Shown: in pieces, positions 44,843-53,505 of the stretch
How the letters are laid out: every line of letters begins with the position of its first letter
Numbering within the stretch: the first letter of the stretch is position 1
Sequence record: PX393108.1
Length of the DNA stretch: 64,000 nucleotides
Source of the DNA: a phage
Direction: 5' to 3' (one strand)
Notes under the pieces: model-generated
The model's database searches: none
The model's input: only the letters and a program-made list of their open reading frames with translations
What the model was told of the DNA's origin: nothing
Program-made: the position numbers and the translations under genes

Positions 44843-45316
44843 TTATTTGAATGATTTGACGTACTGAATAGAACCTTTACTATTCACGAAAGCGATTTTA
44901 CCATTCTTATTATACATGGTAGCAGTACGCTGATAGCCATAAGTTTGCTTACCAGATTGATAACCAACTAATGCGAAATTATCTTCACCCATTTTATTCT
45001 GTTTAGCACGAATACGTTCATGACCGTGTGCCATAAGAACCTTAGCATCACCAGTTGAAATTGATCTACGAGTTTTTTCATCTTCAACTGTATTAACAAA
45101 GTCGTCAAATGAATCAAATTTAGCATGGGATTTATTATACAGTTTTCCATCTACTGCATAATTATATCCCTGTACATCCATCTCAACTTCTGTACCATCA
45201 TCCAATACAGCAGTGATTTTTTGACCTTTTTTAAATTTCAAAAGATCAGTAAAAGATTCAGCAATAATTTGAGAATTAATAGCTGCTTCAGTAATAAATT
45301 CTTGATATGTTTTCAT
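44843..45316 (-). CDS. Internal protein (IPIII-like) with capsid targeting sequence
   Basis: 157 aa; N-terminus MKTYQEFITEAA with (I/L)-x-E prohead protease site. Confidence 0.65.
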   Translation of the reverse strand: MKTYQEFITEAAINSQIIAESFTDLLKFKKGQKITAVLDDGTEVEMDVQGYNYAVDGKLYNKSHAKFDSFDDFVNTVEDEKTRRSISTGDAKVLMAHGHERIRAKQNKMGEDNFALVGYQSGKQTYGYQRTATMYNKNGKIAFVNSKGSIQYVKSFK

Positions 45317-45330
45317 GTGTATCCTTTAAT

Positions 45331-45648
45331 TTATTCTTTAGGGAAGTTTTTAGAATATGCATCATAAAGCTTATTTCCAATACGGCGGAAAACTCTAGCC
45401 GCAAAACGATTTTCTGGGTTTTTAATCATGATTTGCATCATATAAGTACCCGCGTCAGAAAGAGCTTCTTCATAGTACCCATTAATTTCTTTAAGAGTCC
45501 TACGTTTACCACCAGGACCATCAACAGTAATTTTCCATTTACCTGTAGAAGTGCGGCTCGGTGGCTCAACTTGTTCAATCCAAATATAACCTCCTTCTAC
45601 ACGTTGTCCTTGGGCAGATTCTGCAATAAATTCTTTATACGTTTTCAT
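45331..45648 (-). CDS. Internal protein (IPII-like) with capsid targeting sequence
   Basis: 105 aa; N-terminus MKTYKEFIAESA. Confidence 0.65.
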   Translation of the reverse strand: MKTYKEFIAESAQGQRVEGGYIWIEQVEPPSRTSTGKWKITVDGPGGKRRTLKEINGYYEEALSDAGTYMMQIMIKNPENRFAARVFRRIGNKLYDAYSKNFPKE

Positions 45649-46133: not shown

Positions 46134-46664
<531 letters not shown>

Positions 46665-47120
46665 TTAAAAGAGGCTGTTCATTATTCGGTAAAGTGAAGG
46701 ACCCATCACATATTGCCACTGAGTACGAGGAATAAGAGCAAAAGCATCCATCTCTGGAATCATAACGCCATCTTTATTTTCAAAATAAGACTCACAACGG
46801 CAATTTCTGAACATCTCATGCTCTACTGGAATCGTATAATAAAATAACTGTAAGTCTTTATTACTAGAATATTTAAATACACCTAGGTCTTCTAGAAGGT
46901 CTGGATTATAATTGTTAAAACCAGTCTCTTCTGAGCATTCTCTTCGTGCTGCATCTAATGCGCTTAAATCAGAATTTTCTACACGCCCCTTTGGAATATC
47001 CCAGCGATGTGCCATCATTCCAGGCTTACGAGAACCAGTAACTCGTCCCATAAATAAATCTTTATCTTCTGTCATAAAGATAATACCAGCTGATAATGTT
47101 TTCATTTTAATTTCCTGCAT
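46665..47120 (-). CDS. nudE: Nudix hydrolase NudE
   Basis: 151 aa; Nudix box GRVENSDLSALDAARRECSEETGF. Confidence 0.8.
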   Translation of the reverse strand: MQEIKMKTLSAGIIFMTEDKDLFMGRVTGSRKPGMMAHRWDIPKGRVENSDLSALDAARRECSEETGFNNYNPDLLEDLGVFKYSSNKDLQLFYYTIPVEHEMFRNCRCESYFENKDGVMIPEMDAFALIPRTQWQYVMGPSLYRIMNSLF

Positions 47121-47590
47121 TCAGTGATAAAGTTATTTAAATTTTGAGTATATTTCTTTTCATCAAAAATCTTTTGTTGTCTGCGTAGCCGCCATGGCAT
47201 TTCAATGAACGCGTACCATATCCCAGATAATATTGCTGCTGTAAAAATATTAACAAGTATGGTTAAAATAATCCAATCTCCCGTTCTGCCTACTGGACTT
47301 TCTCCAAAGAAGCAAAATACAAATGATGTCACAGGAAAACTAATAATGTACCACAGAATCATAATTTTATCTGTGAACCAATCAGCGTTCGTTAATTTAG
47401 CGCGACCATTATGAATACACACGAATTTATCATCTGTTGCAGTAGATGGCTTAACTGGTTGATATCCCATTCTAAACTCCCTAATTAATCGTTTCTTTGT
47501 ATCTTCAGAACAGCCGCTCCAGTCAACTCTATCGACTGAAATGCCATCGTCCCCATCATCTAAATCATACCAGCGAGTTTTTAAAATCAT
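47102..47590 (-). CDS. Hypothetical membrane protein (e.2 position), paralog family member
   Basis: 162 aa; two TM helices; C-terminal FITECRKLK. Confidence 0.45.
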   Translation of the reverse strand: MILKTRWYDLDDGDDGISVDRVDWSGCSEDTKKRLIREFRMGYQPVKPSTATDDKFVCIHNGRAKLTNADWFTDKIMILWYIISFPVTSFVFCFFGESPVGRTGDWIILTILVNIFTAAILSGIWYAFIEMPWRLRRQQKIFDEKKYTQNLNNFITECRKLK

Positions 47591-47949
47591 TTAATTTTCC
47601 TACAATCACTCACAAACTCTTCCATTGATTCATTTTCAATATAAGACATGTAGTTATTATATTCTTTTAATTGTATTTTGTAATCCTTTTTTCTTTGCCA
47701 ATTTATTTTAAAATTATCATAATGAAAATATAGCATGGTACCAAAGAATGAAAATAATGTAATCGCTATAGTAAAACGAAGTTCACTCCAAACCTCTGTT
47801 ATAATTGCTGAACCATCGATGTTTAAAATAATACAGTCAATTAACAATCCAATAAGACTACCAGCAAGAGCTGCAAATACTGACACGGCAAGAATTAATA
47901 GTGCCTCGGGAAACGAATATTTGACTTTATTTAGTTTTGGCTTTTGCAT
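47587..47949 (-). CDS. Hypothetical membrane protein (e.3 position), paralog family member
   Basis: 120 aa; two TM helices; C-terminal FVSDCRKIK. Confidence 0.45.
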   Translation of the reverse strand: MQKPKLNKVKYSFPEALLILAVSVFAALAGSLIGLLIDCIILNIDGSAIITEVWSELRFTIAITLFSFFGTMLYFHYDNFKINWQRKKDYKIQLKEYNNYMSYIENESMEEFVSDCRKIK

Positions 47950-48344
47950 CGTGATTCCTTAACAAATTTCATAATTTCATTAAATTCATACTCAGCAAGT
48001 TTAAGCTGGTGTTCCTTTTTAATCTTTTTACACTGTGCTTTCCAATCACGTACACGTTTACGATAATGTCTTCCTTGATACCAATATCCTATCCAATTTA
48101 CAGGTACTAATAAAAGTGGAACTATTAATGGAAGAATTAGCATTAACACAAGTATTTCGCCAGAATCAATATCAGTCATAACATCTAAAACACCTCCAAT
48201 AATCAATAGAATTACAAATGATATGAGTATAACAGGACCTATTAATACATCAGTAGGAATTAGCTGACGCTTTAGTTCATACTTCACAGGTTTACTTGGA
48301 AGGTATAGTGATGGCTTTGACATATTCTCTACATTCCTTAACAA
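47931..48344 (-). CDS. Hypothetical membrane protein (e.4 position), paralog family member
   Basis: 137 aa; two TM helices; C-terminal FVKESRCK. Confidence 0.45.
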   Translation of the reverse strand: MLRNVENMSKPSLYLPSKPVKYELKRQLIPTDVLIGPVILISFVILLIIGGVLDVMTDIDSGEILVLMLILPLIVPLLLVPVNWIGYWYQGRHYRKRVRDWKAQCKKIKKEHQLKLAEYEFNEIMKFVKESRCKSQN

Positions 48345-48897
48345 ATTTTTCTAATAATAAATCGCTTTCAAAATTAGGATTTTCCACGAATTTATCAAAA
48401 AGATCATCAACGATAGTTAAGATATTCTTTTTACTAAGAATACGCTTATTTTCATATTTTGTTTCAGAGTCAACTATAAGAGTAAAGAAATATTTCTTTC
48501 CCTGAAATTTTACCGTAGTATCAATATAGAACAAATTTGACTTTTGTAAATTACGTTTAAACCATGCGTCACTTAAACTGTAAACGCCAAGATAATCATA
48601 ATCGTCATTTAAATAACAAACTGTCCATTCAGGAGAAATGAAATCAGTAAATTCAACATCAAAATCACACGTCAATGAATGAATTGATTCAATACTTTTA
48701 ATGAGTATTCCAGGACGTATTAAAGACTTTTTACCTTTATAAAATCCAGAAAGACTTTCATCAGTTTCATATGAAGACCCCCAATAGTAATTACGTCCTT
48801 CTGCCATACGTTTAAGAGCATTTAGTAATTGGTCTGGAACATCAATCTGTCTTTGGAACTCTTCAAACATTGAATTGAAATCACTTTGCATTTTCAT
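48292..48897 (-). CDS. Hypothetical protein (e.5 position)
   Basis: 201 aa; C-terminal FVKECREYV motif similar to upstream membrane paralogs. Confidence 0.45.
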   Translation of the reverse strand: MKMQSDFNSMFEEFQRQIDVPDQLLNALKRMAEGRNYYWGSSYETDESLSGFYKGKKSLIRPGILIKSIESIHSLTCDFDVEFTDFISPEWTVCYLNDDYDYLGVYSLSDAWFKRNLQKSNLFYIDTTVKFQGKKYFFTLIVDSETKYENKRILSKKNILTIVDDLFDKFVENPNFESDLLLEKFVKECREYVKAITIPSK

Positions 48898-48917
48898 TCC
48901 TATTTACTCCAAGTAAT

Positions 48918-48938
48918 AGGGGCCGAAGCCCCTTATCA
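48918..48938 (-). terminator. C(UUCG)G tetraloop hairpin
   Basis: AAGGGGC-UUCG-GCCCCUA on minus-strand transcript. Confidence 0.45.
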
Positions 48939-49532
48939 TTATTTCAGAGAATTAATGTATTCCTGAACATCGGCAGAGGTAGTTTCAACCCCGGAAATAT
49001 TACCGTTAAAGGTTTCAACTCGAGCAAGGGTATCTTCAATATCAACCTTAGTCAGTGCTGCAATTTCAACTACATCATCGGCAGTACTAATTCCAAGAGC
49101 ATTTGCCGCACGAGTTTCACGGATATATTCCAATTTAACCGCAAGTTCTTGGCGAGCATCATCTAACTCAACTACTTTCTTGGCGATTTCAATTCGCATT
49201 TCAGCATAACCGTCAGCTTTAGTAGTCAACTGCTCAGCTGTTCGACGATATAGCAAACCGAGTTTAGCATGCATTGTTACATCTTGACCTTCGGAAAGAA
49301 GTTTACGAATTTCACGCTCTTTTGATTCGGCCTGTCGATTCTTTTCGATAACAAGTTCACGAATACGTTTTTCTTCATTAATAGATTTAATAGAAGCAGT
49401 TTTTAGATCTTTAATTTTATCAAGTAATTTTGCTGCTGCAGCAGTATACTGTTCTTCGACAGATAGATTTTTAGCCATAGCAGAACCAAGTTTAGTGCGA
49501 ATAAACTCAACAATTTTCTTCAGTGTGTTCAT
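48939..49532 (-). CDS. Hypothetical coiled-coil protein (e.6 position)
   Basis: ORF track, 197 aa. Confidence 0.45.
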
Positions 49533-49607
49533 AGTATTTCCTTAGGTTAATTGAGATTTAAAATCCGTTGGAGTATTATATCTTGTTCTCCGAGGGATGT
49601 AAACATG

Positions 49608-50564: not shown

Positions 50565-51128
50565 TTATTTATCTAGTTTAGTTATTATAGCTTCTGCGGC
50601 AGCTTTTAGCTTAGATGCAGTGTTAATACGATTTTTAATTTCAGTATACGCATCGCCAAGAACATCAAGGCTATCAGAATAAACACTTACACTATTGCGT
50701 TCGCTATTTGAAATAGAACCTTTAGTTTTACGATCAAAATCGGTGTACACGTCTTGAAGATCACGGGCTGCCTTCTTTGCATCATCCAATGCATCAAGAG
50801 CTTTATTCAAAGCATTAACGTATTTTTTAGTGTCGAACATATTCTTAGAAATTTTAACAGGTGCGCGTTCAGGAGTAGCTAATGCAGATTTAGGAACCTG
50901 AGCGCCAGATGCCAATTTCTTAGAAATTTTGAAAAACGCTTTATTGAATTTATTTTCTTGACTCATCGTAAAAGAACTATTATCGATGTTGTACATTTCA
51001 ATAGCTTTAGCTTTCCACTTAAGAAAATCGCCGCGGTCTTTTGGGTCCAAGTGGAAGAATACTTTAGTAAGATCTGCTTCAGATGGTAATTTTGCTGCTT
51101 CGGTTAAAAATTCGGCATAGGTTTTCAT
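50565..51128 (-). CDS. Capsid-targeting-sequence protein (internal-protein-like), 187 aa
   Basis: N-terminus MKTYAEFLTEAA with (I/L)-x-E site; RBS AAGGAT; GAAA-loop terminator downstream. Confidence 0.55.
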   Translation of the reverse strand: MKTYAEFLTEAAKLPSEADLTKVFFHLDPKDRGDFLKWKAKAIEMYNIDNSSFTMSQENKFNKAFFKISKKLASGAQVPKSALATPERAPVKISKNMFDTKKYVNALNKALDALDDAKKAARDLQDVYTDFDRKTKGSISNSERNSVSVYSDSLDVLGDAYTEIKNRINTASKLKAAAEAIITKLDK

Positions 51129-51252: not shown

Positions 51253-51727
51253 TTATTTGATTTGTTTAGCAGACCAAATGCGGTCTTTGATGATTTTTTG
51301 GATGTCTTCAACATACTCTAGGTCATGAGCATGTGGGTTATCTTTGAAACTATAAGCACGAGCTAGTTTTTGGCCTTCAGTTTTGATTACTAAAAGCTCT
51401 TTAAGGATAGCTTCATATTTAGCGATAATTCCTTTAACAATATTTTTTTTCTTGTGCAGCTTTAGGATCTGCTTTAGGAGCAGGTTTACCCGAAGCCTTT
51501 GCAAAAGCAGCACCAGTAGCAACTAAACTTTTCCAGGCCATACTAACCGCATTTCCTGTAAATCCTTCTGCTTTCATGTCGCGAGCAAACTGGAATCGTG
51601 ATTCGTCAGAAGCATCTTTATAGGAATATTTACCCGCTGCAATGGCTGCTTTTGCGACAGCTTGAATTTCGGTGCTAGATGCTTCATTTAACACCGCTTC
51701 ATTTAAAAATTGAGCATATGATTTCAT
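51253..51727 (-). CDS. Capsid-targeting-sequence protein gene split over two frames at an A8 run (possible frameshift or pseudogene)
   Basis: N-terminal frame 51434..51727 starts MKSYAQFLNEAV; C-terminal frame 51253..51522; frames meet at A8 (51443-51450); TATAAATA late promoter upstream; terminator downstream. Confidence 0.45.
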
Positions 51728-52484: not shown

Positions 52485-52560
52485 TGGTCGAGGCAGTAGG
52501 GATCGAACCTACGACCTAGGACTTAGAAGGTCCTTGCTCTTCCTTCTGAGCTATGCCCCG
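52485..52560 (-). tRNA. tRNA-Arg (anticodon UCU)
   Basis: Acceptor CGGGGCA/UGCCUCG, anticodon loop CUUCUAA, encoded CCA. Confidence 0.8.
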
Positions 52561-52564
52561 TAAT

Positions 52565-52640
52565 TGGGGTGACCGATGGGAGTCGAACCCATGACTACGA
52601 GAATCACAATCTCGAGTTCTACCAACTGAACTACGGCCAC
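52565..52640 (-). tRNA. tRNA-His (anticodon GUG)
   Basis: Acceptor GUGGCCG/CGGUCAC, discriminator C, anticodon loop UUGUGAU, encoded CCA. Confidence 0.7.
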
Positions 52641-52753
52641 ATTAATACCTACTCCAACAATCAAGATGTCTTCACACGAAATTAAGAGAAGAGTGATCAG
52701 TTCAACCCTATAATCGCGTCAAGTAGATATTAATGTGACAGTTGTCACAAATT

Positions 52754-52828
52754 TGGCGGACGTGATAGGATTCGAACCTATAACCAATCGCTTAACAGGC
52801 GATCGCTCTGCCATTGAGCTACACATCC
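52754..52828 (-). tRNA. tRNA-Asn (anticodon GUU)
   Basis: Acceptor GGAUGUG/CACGUCC, anticodon loop CUGUUAA, encoded CCA. Confidence 0.7.
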
Positions 52829-52832
52829 AAAT

Positions 52833-52919
52833 TGGTGGGGAGTGATGGAGTCGAACCACCCGAGTCGCAATGACAATGGATTTACAGTCCACACCGCTAC
52901 CTCTACGGGATAACTCCCC
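52833..52919 (-). tRNA. tRNA-Tyr (anticodon GUA)
   Basis: Acceptor GGGGAGU/ACUCCCC, anticodon loop CUGUAAA, long variable arm, encoded CCA. Confidence 0.7.
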
Positions 52920-52932
52920 TTAATTCTTAATT

Positions 52933-53007
52933 TGGTGGCCCTGGGTGGAATTGAACCACCATCTGGCGATTATGAGTCGCTTGCTTGAACCTTCCAGCTA
53001 CAGGGCC
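52933..53007 (-). tRNA. tRNA with anticodon CAU (Ile2-type or Met)
   Basis: Acceptor GGCCCUG/CAGGGCC, anticodon loop CUCAUAA, encoded CCA; T4 tRNA-Ile uses CAU. Confidence 0.7.
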
Positions 53008-53008
53008 T

Positions 53009-53084
53009 TGGTGCTGATTGACGGAATCGAACCGCCGACCTTCTCATTACAAGTGAGTTGCTCTACCTACTGAGCTAAATCAGC
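53009..53084 (-). tRNA. tRNA-Thr (anticodon UGU)
   Basis: Acceptor GCUGAUU/AAUCAGC, anticodon loop CUUGUAA, encoded CCA. Confidence 0.8.
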
Positions 53085-53089
53085 AAAAC

Positions 53090-53179
53090 TGGCGGAGGCG
53101 ATAGGATTTGAACCTATGAGTCGCCGGAGCGACTGCCGGTTTTCAAGACCGGTGCATTAAACCACTCTGCCACGCCTCC
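53090..53179 (-). tRNA. tRNA-Ser (anticodon UGA)
   Basis: Acceptor GGAGGCG/CGCCUCC, anticodon loop CUUGAAA, long variable arm, encoded CCA. Confidence 0.8.
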
Positions 53180-53181
53180 AG

Positions 53182-53255
53182 TCTCCATACAAGGATTTGA
53201 ACCTTGGACCTCCTGATCCCAAATCAGGCGCTCTACCAAACTGAGCTACACGGAG
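53182..53255 (-). tRNA. tRNA-Pro (anticodon UGG)
   Basis: Acceptor CUCCGUG with G-U pairs, anticodon loop UUUGGGA; CCA not encoded. Confidence 0.75.
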
Positions 53256-53265
53256 TAAATTAAAT

Positions 53266-53339
<74 letters not shown>

Positions 53340-53344
53340 AAATT

Positions 53345-53431
53345 TGGTGCGAGAAGTGGGACTCGAACCCACAAGGAAATCATTCCGCAGCATTTTAAGT
53401 GCTGTGCCTTTACCAATTTGACCATTCTCGC
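53345..53431 (-). tRNA. tRNA-Leu (anticodon UAA)
   Basis: Acceptor GCGAGAA/UUCUCGC, anticodon loop CUUAAAA, long variable arm, encoded CCA. Confidence 0.8.
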
Positions 53432-53432
53432 G

Positions 53433-53505
53433 CTGGGAATAAAGGACTCGAACCTTTGCATCCTGGAATCAAAATCCAGTGCCTTACCAACTTGGCTAAT
53501 TCCCA
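53433..53505 (-). tRNA. tRNA-Gln (anticodon UUG)
   Basis: Manual cloverleaf: acceptor UGGGAAU/AUUCCCA, anticodon loop UUUUGAU, T-arm GGTTCGAGTCC; CCA not encoded. Confidence 0.8.

Follow-up and report, generated by a model that had tools for sequence, protein, structure and literature searches.

A conserved C-terminal F-x-x-x-C-R motif common to the soluble e.5 family and adjoining membrane hairpins of T4-like phages

Why do four adjacent genes of a phage, three for small membrane proteins and one for a soluble protein, end in almost the same few amino acids? The question is raised by positions 47102-48897 of phage sequence record PX393108.1, within a stretch of 64,000 nucleotides (nt) that was analysed as a whole and is here referred to as the window. 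An original prediction had described three of these open reading frames (ORFs) as a tandem family of paralogous membrane proteins with a shared C-terminal motif, which could act in superinfection exclusion, lysis timing or membrane-located counter-defence. Here, we describe the four ORFs as homologues of T4 e.2, e.3, e.4 and e.5, which are already known, non-essential T4 ORFs, and argue that their common ending is a putative docking helix, tying the soluble e.5 protein to membrane anchors or giving all four proteins a common partner, a reading to which we give a probability of about 0.4. What is new is a protein-level motif common to a widespread soluble family and the adjoining membrane hairpins, as well as the second role of this motif as a ribosome-binding site and recombination joint.

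The locus is readily placed. A megablast comparison of positions 46600-49600 with phage records returned 647 matching records, nearly all from Tequatrovirus and at 90-97% identity, and judged by its sequence the window belongs to this genus. On the minus strand, which carries all genes and motifs of the cluster, the gene order is as in T4: e (46134-46628), nudE (46665-47120), e.2, e.3, e.4, e.5 and e.6. The e.5 homologue (48292-48897) encodes a soluble protein of 201 amino acids, the e.4 homologue (47931-48323) a two-transmembrane (two-TM) hairpin of 130 amino acids, the e.3 homologue (47587-47949) a further two-TM hairpin of 120 amino acids and the e.2 homologue (47102-47590) a protein of 162 amino acids with a 75-residue cytoplasmic N-terminal domain, a two-TM hairpin and a tail. 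T4 e.2-e.5 have the same order, strand and overlaps, and the four ORFs are their direct orthologues; identity to T4 is ~79% for e.3 (by tblastn), ~84% for e.2 and 94% for e.5, the direct comparison covering these three and not e.4. The overlaps along e.5, e.4, e.3, e.2 and nudE amount to 32, 19, 4 and 19 nt, and the region is a translationally coupled early gene block of a T4-like phage, ending in nudE, a Nudix hydrolase gene (Pfam NUDIX, 1e-13). Two placements had to be corrected: the cluster was thought to lie downstream of the lysis genes but lies to the 5' side of nudE and e, with which it shares a strand, and the third gene, formerly read from a TTG at 48344, starts at the ATG at 48323, which gives the 130 amino acids also seen in T4 e.4 and phrog_2604.

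The tails of the four proteins read ...NNFITECRKLK (e.2), ...EEFVSDCRKIK (e.3), ...KFVKESRCKSQN (e.4) and ...KFVKECREYVKAITIPSK (e.5), each followed by the stop codon. When all six-frame ORFs of at least 60 amino acids in the window were scanned, the pattern F[IV].[ED]C[RK] occurred three times, in the e.2, e.3 and e.5 homologues and no more than 17 residues from the stop, against a shuffle expectation of 0.065 overall and 0 in tails. The looser pattern F[IV]..C[RK] likewise has no more than three matches in the whole T4 genome, one in each tail of e.2, e.3 and e.5; the motif is real and specific to the e.2-e.5 cluster. Its instances are F154-I-T-E-C158-R159 in e.2 (47114-47131), F112-V-S-D-C116-R117 in e.3 (47599-47616; residues invariant) and F185-V-K-E-C189-R190 in e.5 (48328-48345, on the last predicted helix), the last of which bears out the earlier remark that the ORF after the three membrane proteins ends in the same way. 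The claim of a common tail motif holds for the small membrane proteins, well above chance, e.4 having a form of its own, F-x-K-E-x-R, present in the window as F120-V-K-E-S-R125 (47949-47966). The trailing cysteine once included in the e.4 motif has to be given up: its TGC codon is the overlap with the e.3 ATG, and other genera do not conserve it.

Across genera, the motif is kept with characteristic variation. The e.2-like proteins end in FIEECRK or FIKGCRN, Gaprivervirus SP18 and Kanagawavirus PEi20 both keeping F-I-x-x-C-R in this protein, and the e.3-like proteins end in FIKECRK, FIKECKS or YFIKECR; the cysteine is strictly retained in both. The e.4-like tails read FVKEIR, FIKEVR and FVKEVRRK, and W94, C98 and F-x-K-E-x-R are invariant in e.4 across four genera. 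W94 and C98 belong to an internal element of e.4, W94-K-A-Q-C98-K (48027-48044), an aromatic-x3-Cys-basic arrangement resembling the tail motif of e.2, e.3 and e.5. Other two-TM proteins, which were not assigned by profile, end in FIKNVRRK and WIKEMK. The motif is predicted to end an amphipathic helix, with hydrophobic residues at i-3, i, i+1 and i+4, the last being the cysteine.

As a signature of the membrane proteins the motif fails: the comparison across genera shows it to be the hallmark of the soluble and far more widespread e.5 family, to which it is ancestral and of which it is the most conserved feature. The e.6 gene is found in 1107 phage records and is far more widespread than e.3 and e.4, and directly downstream of it there is always a gene for a soluble protein of 178-288 amino acids ending in F-[IV]-x-x-C-R, the order e.6 then e.5-like being kept in at least eight genera of the Straboviridae. 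The e.5-like tails are FVKECRE in Tequatrovirus, FIMECRE in Mosigvirus, FIAECRE in Gaprivervirus and Dhakavirus, FIKYCRE in Jiaodavirus, FVDQCRA in Kanagawavirus, FVKMCRT in Winklervirus and FVDYCRR in the Aeromonas phage genus Tulanevirus. When four sequences were compared on each side, e.5 and the e.5-like proteins aligned in their tails alone, which at first suggested unrelated bodies; this was overturned when six more genera were added, as the Tequatrovirus and Mosigvirus e.5 proteins align with the e.5-like proteins of six other genera by hhalign (probability 96.5%, E 7e-10, 123 columns). In the eight-genus alignment only six columns are invariant, M1, N97, Y148, F185, C189 and R190, with identity otherwise at 15-20%. 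Throughout the eight genera, one to three two-TM proteins with a like ending follow the e.5-like gene, the exception being Aeromonas phage ZHF, in which this gene has neither a membrane paralogue nor an overlapping downstream gene. A view of the e.5 tail as the remnant of a deleted membrane gene was therefore ruled out, the motif being invariant family-wide, including in a phage without membrane paralogues.

The same codons also have a function at the DNA level. They lie in the translation-initiation region of the next gene, where AAGGAA (encoding K-E) or AGGAAA (encoding R-K) is its Shine-Dalgarno sequence, in most copies at a distance of 6-11 nt from the ATG that follows: AAGGAA in the e.4 tail serves e.3, AGGAAA in the e.3 tail serves e.2 (with an ATGA stop/start overlap) and AGGAAA in the e.2 tail serves nudE. 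In addition, the e.4 and e.5 tails contain an exact 16-nt repeat (repeat family D15), AAATTTGTTAAGGAAT on the coding strand, at 47954-47969 and 48333-48348. Several observations nevertheless show a constraint on the protein. The motif arginine is encoded by AGA, AGG, CGA, CGT and CGC (and the cysteine by TGT or TGC), and the use of five arginine codons shows selection on the protein. The e.5-like motif of Dhakavirus and Gaprivervirus (FIAECREY) has a separate Shine-Dalgarno sequence downstream of it, and in Aeromonas phage ZHF the e.5-like protein ends in ...MFVDYCRRTAPKRD (MFVDYCRR) 80 nt before the next gene. Furthermore, none of ~900 other T4 ORFs with comparable ribosome-binding sites ends in F[IV]..C[RK]. 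The motif is thus selected at the protein level; the ribosome-binding site accounts for the frequent K-E and R-K and not for F, [IV], C and R.

The three membrane proteins share an architecture. Each of the e.2, e.3 and e.4 homologues has two strong hydrophobic peaks on the Kyte-Doolittle scale, and the e.5 homologue has none. In e.4, TM1 covers residues ~27-49 (48177-48245, peak 2.85) and TM2 residues ~57-78 (48090-48155, peak 3.04); in e.3, TM1 covers residues ~17-42 (47824-47901, peak 2.55, also a helix in the AlphaFold2 model) and TM2 residues ~57-75 (47725-47781, Kyte-Doolittle peak and AlphaFold2), running on into a cytoplasmic helix; in e.2, TM1 covers residues 76-96 (47303-47365, peak 2.09) and TM2 residues 106-128 (47207-47275, peak 2.21). 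A segment rich in lysine and arginine follows each hairpin, the loops between the helices contain 0-1 lysine or arginine and 2-3 aspartate or glutamate residues, and the N-termini and tails contain 4-15 lysine or arginine residues. The two helices and the basic segment formerly proposed for the three ORFs are thus confirmed, and by the positive-inside rule this distribution argues for a topology with both termini inside. The AlphaFold2 model of e.3, built from 12 homologues, has a mean predicted local distance difference test score (pLDDT) of 76 and consists of a helix (residues 13-45), a short turn and one continuous helix (residues 50-119), i.e. a TM hairpin whose second helix extends ~45 residues into the cytoplasm. 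Taken together, e.2, e.3 and e.4 are predicted to be inner-membrane hairpins, N-in/C-in, each with a long, basic and amphipathic cytoplasmic C-terminal helix. In general form, this helix terminates in aromatic-[IV]-x-x-C-[RK], an element with which the last helix of the soluble e.5 also closes. Within Tequatrovirus, the frequency of the major residue is 0.95-0.97 in the cytoplasmic tails versus 0.74-0.88 in the TM segments and loops, and a 4-residue indel is found in a periplasmic loop.

Whether these proteins form one paralogous family, as the original prediction had it, can be answered in part. Pairwise BLASTP among the three gave marginal values (E 0.002-0.18), and family profiles including other genera were used instead in hhalign, with decoys in which one alignment was reversed or column-shuffled. 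The e.3 and e.4 profiles align over 42 tail columns with a probability of 96% (E 4.7e-9, score 54.6; decoys 8-18), and at low stringency over their full length and collinearly, including a common M-x-K-P-x-L start. The C-terminal half of e.2 matches e.3 at 85% (score 35.9; decoys 10-18) over 14 columns of the motif only, and e.2 gives no match to e.4 (decoys 6-16). The TM segments give no paralogy signal; the e.2 and e.3 tails align to the internal W-K-A-Q-C-K-K-I-K of e.4 in both BLASTP and hhalign, and the e.5 profile scores 30 against e.3 (decoys 8-15). The e.3 and e.4 proteins are therefore paralogues, demonstrably so via their tails, whereas e.2 is linked to them only through its architecture and the motif, on which a family of all three would have to rest. 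By tblastn, e.3 and e.4 are restricted to a few Tevenvirinae genera. The e.3 profile, run against 1.84 billion representative proteins, gave five matches, all T-even-like fragments, with no distant relatives and no cross-match to e.2 or e.4, and Foldseek with the e.3 model returned only its own relatives from BFVD.

In keeping with these profiles, the four ORFs fall into four separate PHROGs: phrog_2203 for e.2 (9.3e-79, full-length), phrog_2330 for e.3 (1.3e-57, residues 1-118), phrog_2604 for e.4 (2e-70, residues 8-137 of the TTG ORF) and phrog_2607 for e.5 (1.5e-107, full-length), of which only phrog_2203 carries a label ('membrane protein'). For e.2 there are 51 homologues with the precomputed annotation PF26896, for e.3 46 homologues at 66-97% identity and for e.4 98 homologues, all with the precomputed annotation PF26873. 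Our own searches with Pfam, NCBIfam, PADLOC and Rfam gave nothing relevant for e.2-e.5, PF26873 and PF26896 being taken from precomputed protein-database annotation and the Pfam library searched lacking the PF26873 model. In T4, e.2, e.3 and e.4 are annotated as 'conserved hypothetical, predicted membrane protein', no paper on the function of e.2-e.5 was found in the literature, and the shared motif and the link to e.5 are undescribed in the sources searched. The names 'sulfurtransferase' (for e.3 and e.4 homologues), 'DNA primase' (for one e.3 homologue) and 'host specificity protein' (for e.6) appear in several GenBank/RefSeq records; none of them is borne out by any domain search, and a rhodanese domain was not matched in e.3 or e.4 by Pfam or NCBIfam at E up to 0.1-1.

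The junctions that carry the motif are also places where genes are lost. Dhakavirus is without e.4, and the end of its e.5-like gene matches the end of Gaprivervirus e.4 at the DNA level; in Mosigvirus phiC120 (locus 2400-2590), all that is left of e.3 is its last ~16 codons, together with the ribosome-binding site that serves the next gene; and in phage vB_EcoM-UFV05 (P0144), the N-terminus of e.4 is fused in register to e.2 from TM1 to the tail, joined at a common 'PV' in TM1. These losses and fusions at repeated junctions indicate that the junctions act as joints for cassette loss, and the DNA of the motif doubles as the ribosome-binding site of the next gene and as a short direct repeat for in-frame cassette deletion. 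The e.2 gene is intact in the window (162 amino acids), whereas that of the T4 reference (T4 67490-67960) is broken by two frameshifts, with a tail ORF, ...FIEMPWRLRRQQKIFDEKKYAQNLNNFITECRKLK, still readable in the original frame up to the stop; the split into PHROGs 35263 and 35580 is due to these frameshifts.

Data from T4 bear on when these genes act and whether they are needed. T4 e.2-e.6 and nudE belong to the early RNA class and their proteins have been detected, with e.4 and e.5 assigned to the early, e.2, e.6 and nudE to the middle and e.3 to the late protein class (PMC9697503 supplements). In a CRISPRi-ART screen, T4 e.2-e.8 and nudE were scored 'Not Fit', with prior essentiality given as 'UNKNOWN' (PMC11879866 supplement 15); we read 'Not Fit' as no fitness effect of the knock-down on the laboratory host. 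A T4 transposon-sequencing preprint makes no mention of these genes. On laboratory Escherichia coli the module can be dispensed with, its copy number differs between genera and it is often damaged, all of which marks it as accessory.

What, then, is the common ending for? In the reading we prefer, at a probability of about 0.4 as stated above, the shared helix would serve for docking or assembly: the membrane-protein tails may pack against that of e.5, or each tail may fill one and the same groove, either on e.5 or on a partner common to them all, for which the always-adjacent e.6 or a host cytoplasmic protein would be candidates, and the soluble, early e.5 protein would be tethered to one to three interchangeable membrane anchors. 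Several points weigh against it. The single-sequence model of e.5 is unusable (pLDDT 44), and e.4 has serine, isoleucine or valine in place of the cysteine, which fits a packing position, yet makes the motif less than uniform. The Aeromonas phage has e.5 without membrane partners, and the primary role of the motif there is therefore not membrane tethering. Moreover, K-E and R-K double as Shine-Dalgarno sequences in many copies and e.4 and e.5 have 16 identical nt, and part of the similarity is therefore DNA-level. Pressed to its end, this last point would make the whole motif a by-product of DNA, the similarity coming from translation of a ribosome-binding site and from a junction of recombination or duplication, with a functionless peptide. 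The spacing of AAGGAA or AGGAAA from the next ATG, the e.4 cysteine codon that is an overlap with the e.3 ATG, the 16-nt repeat and the cassette deletions ending at junctions (the Dhakavirus e.5-like and Gaprivervirus e.4 tails, and the phiC120 e.3 tail) would all follow from it, but it is unlikely in view of the ~900 T4 ORFs that have comparable ribosome-binding sites and never end in this way, the five arginine codons, the motifs kept with a Shine-Dalgarno sequence further downstream (Dhakavirus, Gaprivervirus) or with no overlap at all (Aeromonas phage ZHF), and the presence of F, C and R among the only invariant residues of a family at 15-20% identity. The strict Cys-Arg pair of e.2, e.3 and e.5 could also mark chemistry instead of docking, with e.5 an enzyme, the membrane proteins carrying the same element, reactive or substrate-like, and the pair being catalytic, redox-active, metal-binding or modified. 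C189 and R190 are indeed strictly invariant, together with N97 and Y148, in an otherwise divergent family, e.2 and e.3 retain the cysteine without exception from genus to genus and some records use the name 'sulfurtransferase'; yet Pfam, NCBIfam and PDB sequence searches revealed no rhodanese or other enzyme domain, the label has no detectable basis, e.4 has S, I or V at the cysteine position, and the motif is placed on an amphipathic helix, where the one-turn spacing of F and C is typical of packing, so that we consider a chemical role distinctly improbable.

Other explanations start from the membrane proteins or from e.6. The e.2-e.4 proteins might be independent early membrane effectors, active in Imm- or Sp-like exclusion or in counter-defence, each using its tail as a linear motif for one host cytoplasmic target; this is possible, if doubtful. 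Early expression, dispensability, a copy number that varies between genera and variable TM segments and periplasmic loops (with the 4-residue indel) beside invariant cytoplasmic tails are what such effectors would be expected to have, while the tight overlapping chain suggests a fixed stoichiometry and the motif is oldest in the soluble protein. Nor is there profile similarity to known effectors: hhalign gave T4 Imm probabilities of 0.3-5% against the cluster, Sp likewise had no similarity (at most 5%), T4 rI reached at most 0.2% (holin t itself was not compared), and PADLOC models did not match e.2-e.5. The same rI result speaks against the lysis-timing role once suggested (holin, antiholin or spanin-like), for which nothing more can be cited than a position near the endolysin gene e and the build of a small membrane protein; with genes lying 5' of nudE and e, early RNA, early e.4 and e.5 proteins, no fitness effect of knock-down and T4 holin t, rI and the spanins pseT.2/pseT.3 mapping elsewhere in the genome (T4 annotation), it is scarcely credible. 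Finally, e.6, e.5 and e.4/e.3/e.2 could be a conserved Straboviridae membrane-maintenance module akin to the Psp system, in which e.6 would be a PspA/Vipp1 protein of the ESCRT-III type and e.5 a soluble adaptor, both brought to the inner membrane via the F-x-x-x-C-R helix by interchangeable, PspB/PspC-like hairpin anchors. Here the eight-genus e.6 profile is collinear from the N-terminus (3-136 versus 3-138) with four Vipp1/sll0617 PDB sequences, weakly (E 0.23-3), and its ...LLxEGxDV..AKLGLL... lies opposite ...LALTNGEENLAREALARK... of Vipp1 in that weak match; e.6 always precedes e.5, and the membrane hairpins have cytoplasmic helices. Pfam PspA_IM30, however, matched none of eight e.6 homologues, hhalign of e.6 against E. 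coli PspA gave no match, the depositors' HHpred note on a Serratia phage homologue says only 'coiled coil', and E. coli PspB and PspC do not match e.2-e.4 in hhalign (best PspB versus e.4, probability 21.6%, score 23.7; others at most 3%), all of which makes such a module very unlikely. Were it true, the e.6-e.5-anchor module would be a phage-encoded membrane-maintenance or -remodelling system acting early in infection.

Around the cluster, several further features can be described. The e.6 homologue (48939-49532, minus strand, phrog_1203) is a helical, cysteine-free protein of 197 amino acids, and a GC-rich hairpin with a UUCG loop lies between e.6 and e.5 (48918-48933, minus strand). Approximately 40 nt upstream of e.6, a promoter-like sigma-70-type site, TTTACA-17-TATAAT (11/12; 49575-49603, minus strand), is a pattern match only, in line with the assignment of the T4 orthologues to early RNA. 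In Mosigvirus, Dhakavirus, Gaprivervirus, Kanagawavirus and Winklervirus, the e.3-like gene is followed by an array in which between two and four small, acidic and soluble proteins are encoded in tandem (L002 2857-3651, L003 2665-3704, L009 4711-5790 and L011 4829-5394 in the loci compared), nearly all of which end in ...G-x-W-[VI]-S-S-S-x-x-C and some in ...W-x-P-S-S-C, with cysteine as the last residue; a regular-expression scan did not find this array in the window. Jiaodavirus and Gaprivervirus encode a very acidic 78-residue protein between e.2-like and nudE (L008 5194-5430 and L013 1692-1928), the Jiaodavirus copy of which ends in ...SWNECQ. A tRNA cluster at 52485-53505 (minus strand) comprises 11 genes, including those for His, Asn, Tyr and Met, where the T4 counterpart has eight. 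Four ORFs, at 50565-51128 and 51434-51727 (both minus strand), 44843-45316 and 45331-45648, begin like the capsid-targeting sequence of internal proteins (MKTYAEFLTEAA, MKSYAQFLNEAV, MKTYQEFITEAA and MKTYKEFIAESA), and two of them occupy the interval from e.8 to the tRNA cluster, in which T4 has no such ORF. A likeness of the tail motif to the capsid-targeting sequence of internal proteins (MKTYQEFIxEA) was considered and set aside as coincidence, with only F-I-x-E in common and a different location.

About half of the T4 genes are still without a known function, e.2-e.6 among them, and the immediate impact of the present analysis is modest: the genes are dispensable in the laboratory and no function is revealed. 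Its value lies elsewhere. The helix of the e.5 family spans phages from E. coli to Aeromonas, and four adjacent early proteins end alike under protein-level selection; four 'hypothetical proteins' thereby become one testable module, with F, C and R as targets for point mutants.

How does this module compare with known systems? The hairpins of TolQ, ExbB and MotA are the top PDB Foldseek neighbours of the e.3 model and likewise have TM helices prolonged as cytoplasmic helices, but the matches are non-significant (E 0.26-1, query-normalised TM-score ~0.4, 15-20% identity) and the likeness is that of a generic helical hairpin and not of membership. Imm and Sp are, like e.2-e.4, small, early and non-essential envelope proteins of T-even phages, and Imm is also a two-TM inner-membrane protein; unlike e.2-e.4, Imm has neither the long cytoplasmic helix nor the F-x-x-x-C-R motif, and it blocks the DNA entry of superinfecting T-even phages, an exclusion phenotype that is known for none of e.2-e.4. 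As in the Psp system, a helical, coiled-coil-like soluble protein (here e.6) stands beside small membrane proteins with cytoplasmic helices to which it could bind. Both termini of PspC are reportedly cytoplasmic. The Psp system is, however, without a counterpart of e.5, and its proteins have no significant sequence relation to e.6 or e.2-e.4. The closest parallel for the DNA of the motif is of another kind. T4-type phages shuffle modular cassettes at short repeated junctions, e.g. the PeSL cassettes, and short repeats at gene boundaries are likewise found here, coinciding with in-frame gene loss or fusion. In the PeSL cassettes the repeat is a promoter stem-loop, whereas in the e.5-e.2 cluster it is coding and comprises the motif together with the ribosome-binding site, a clear case in which a coding motif serves at once as ribosome-binding site for the downstream gene and as a recombination joint for the gain and loss of cassettes.

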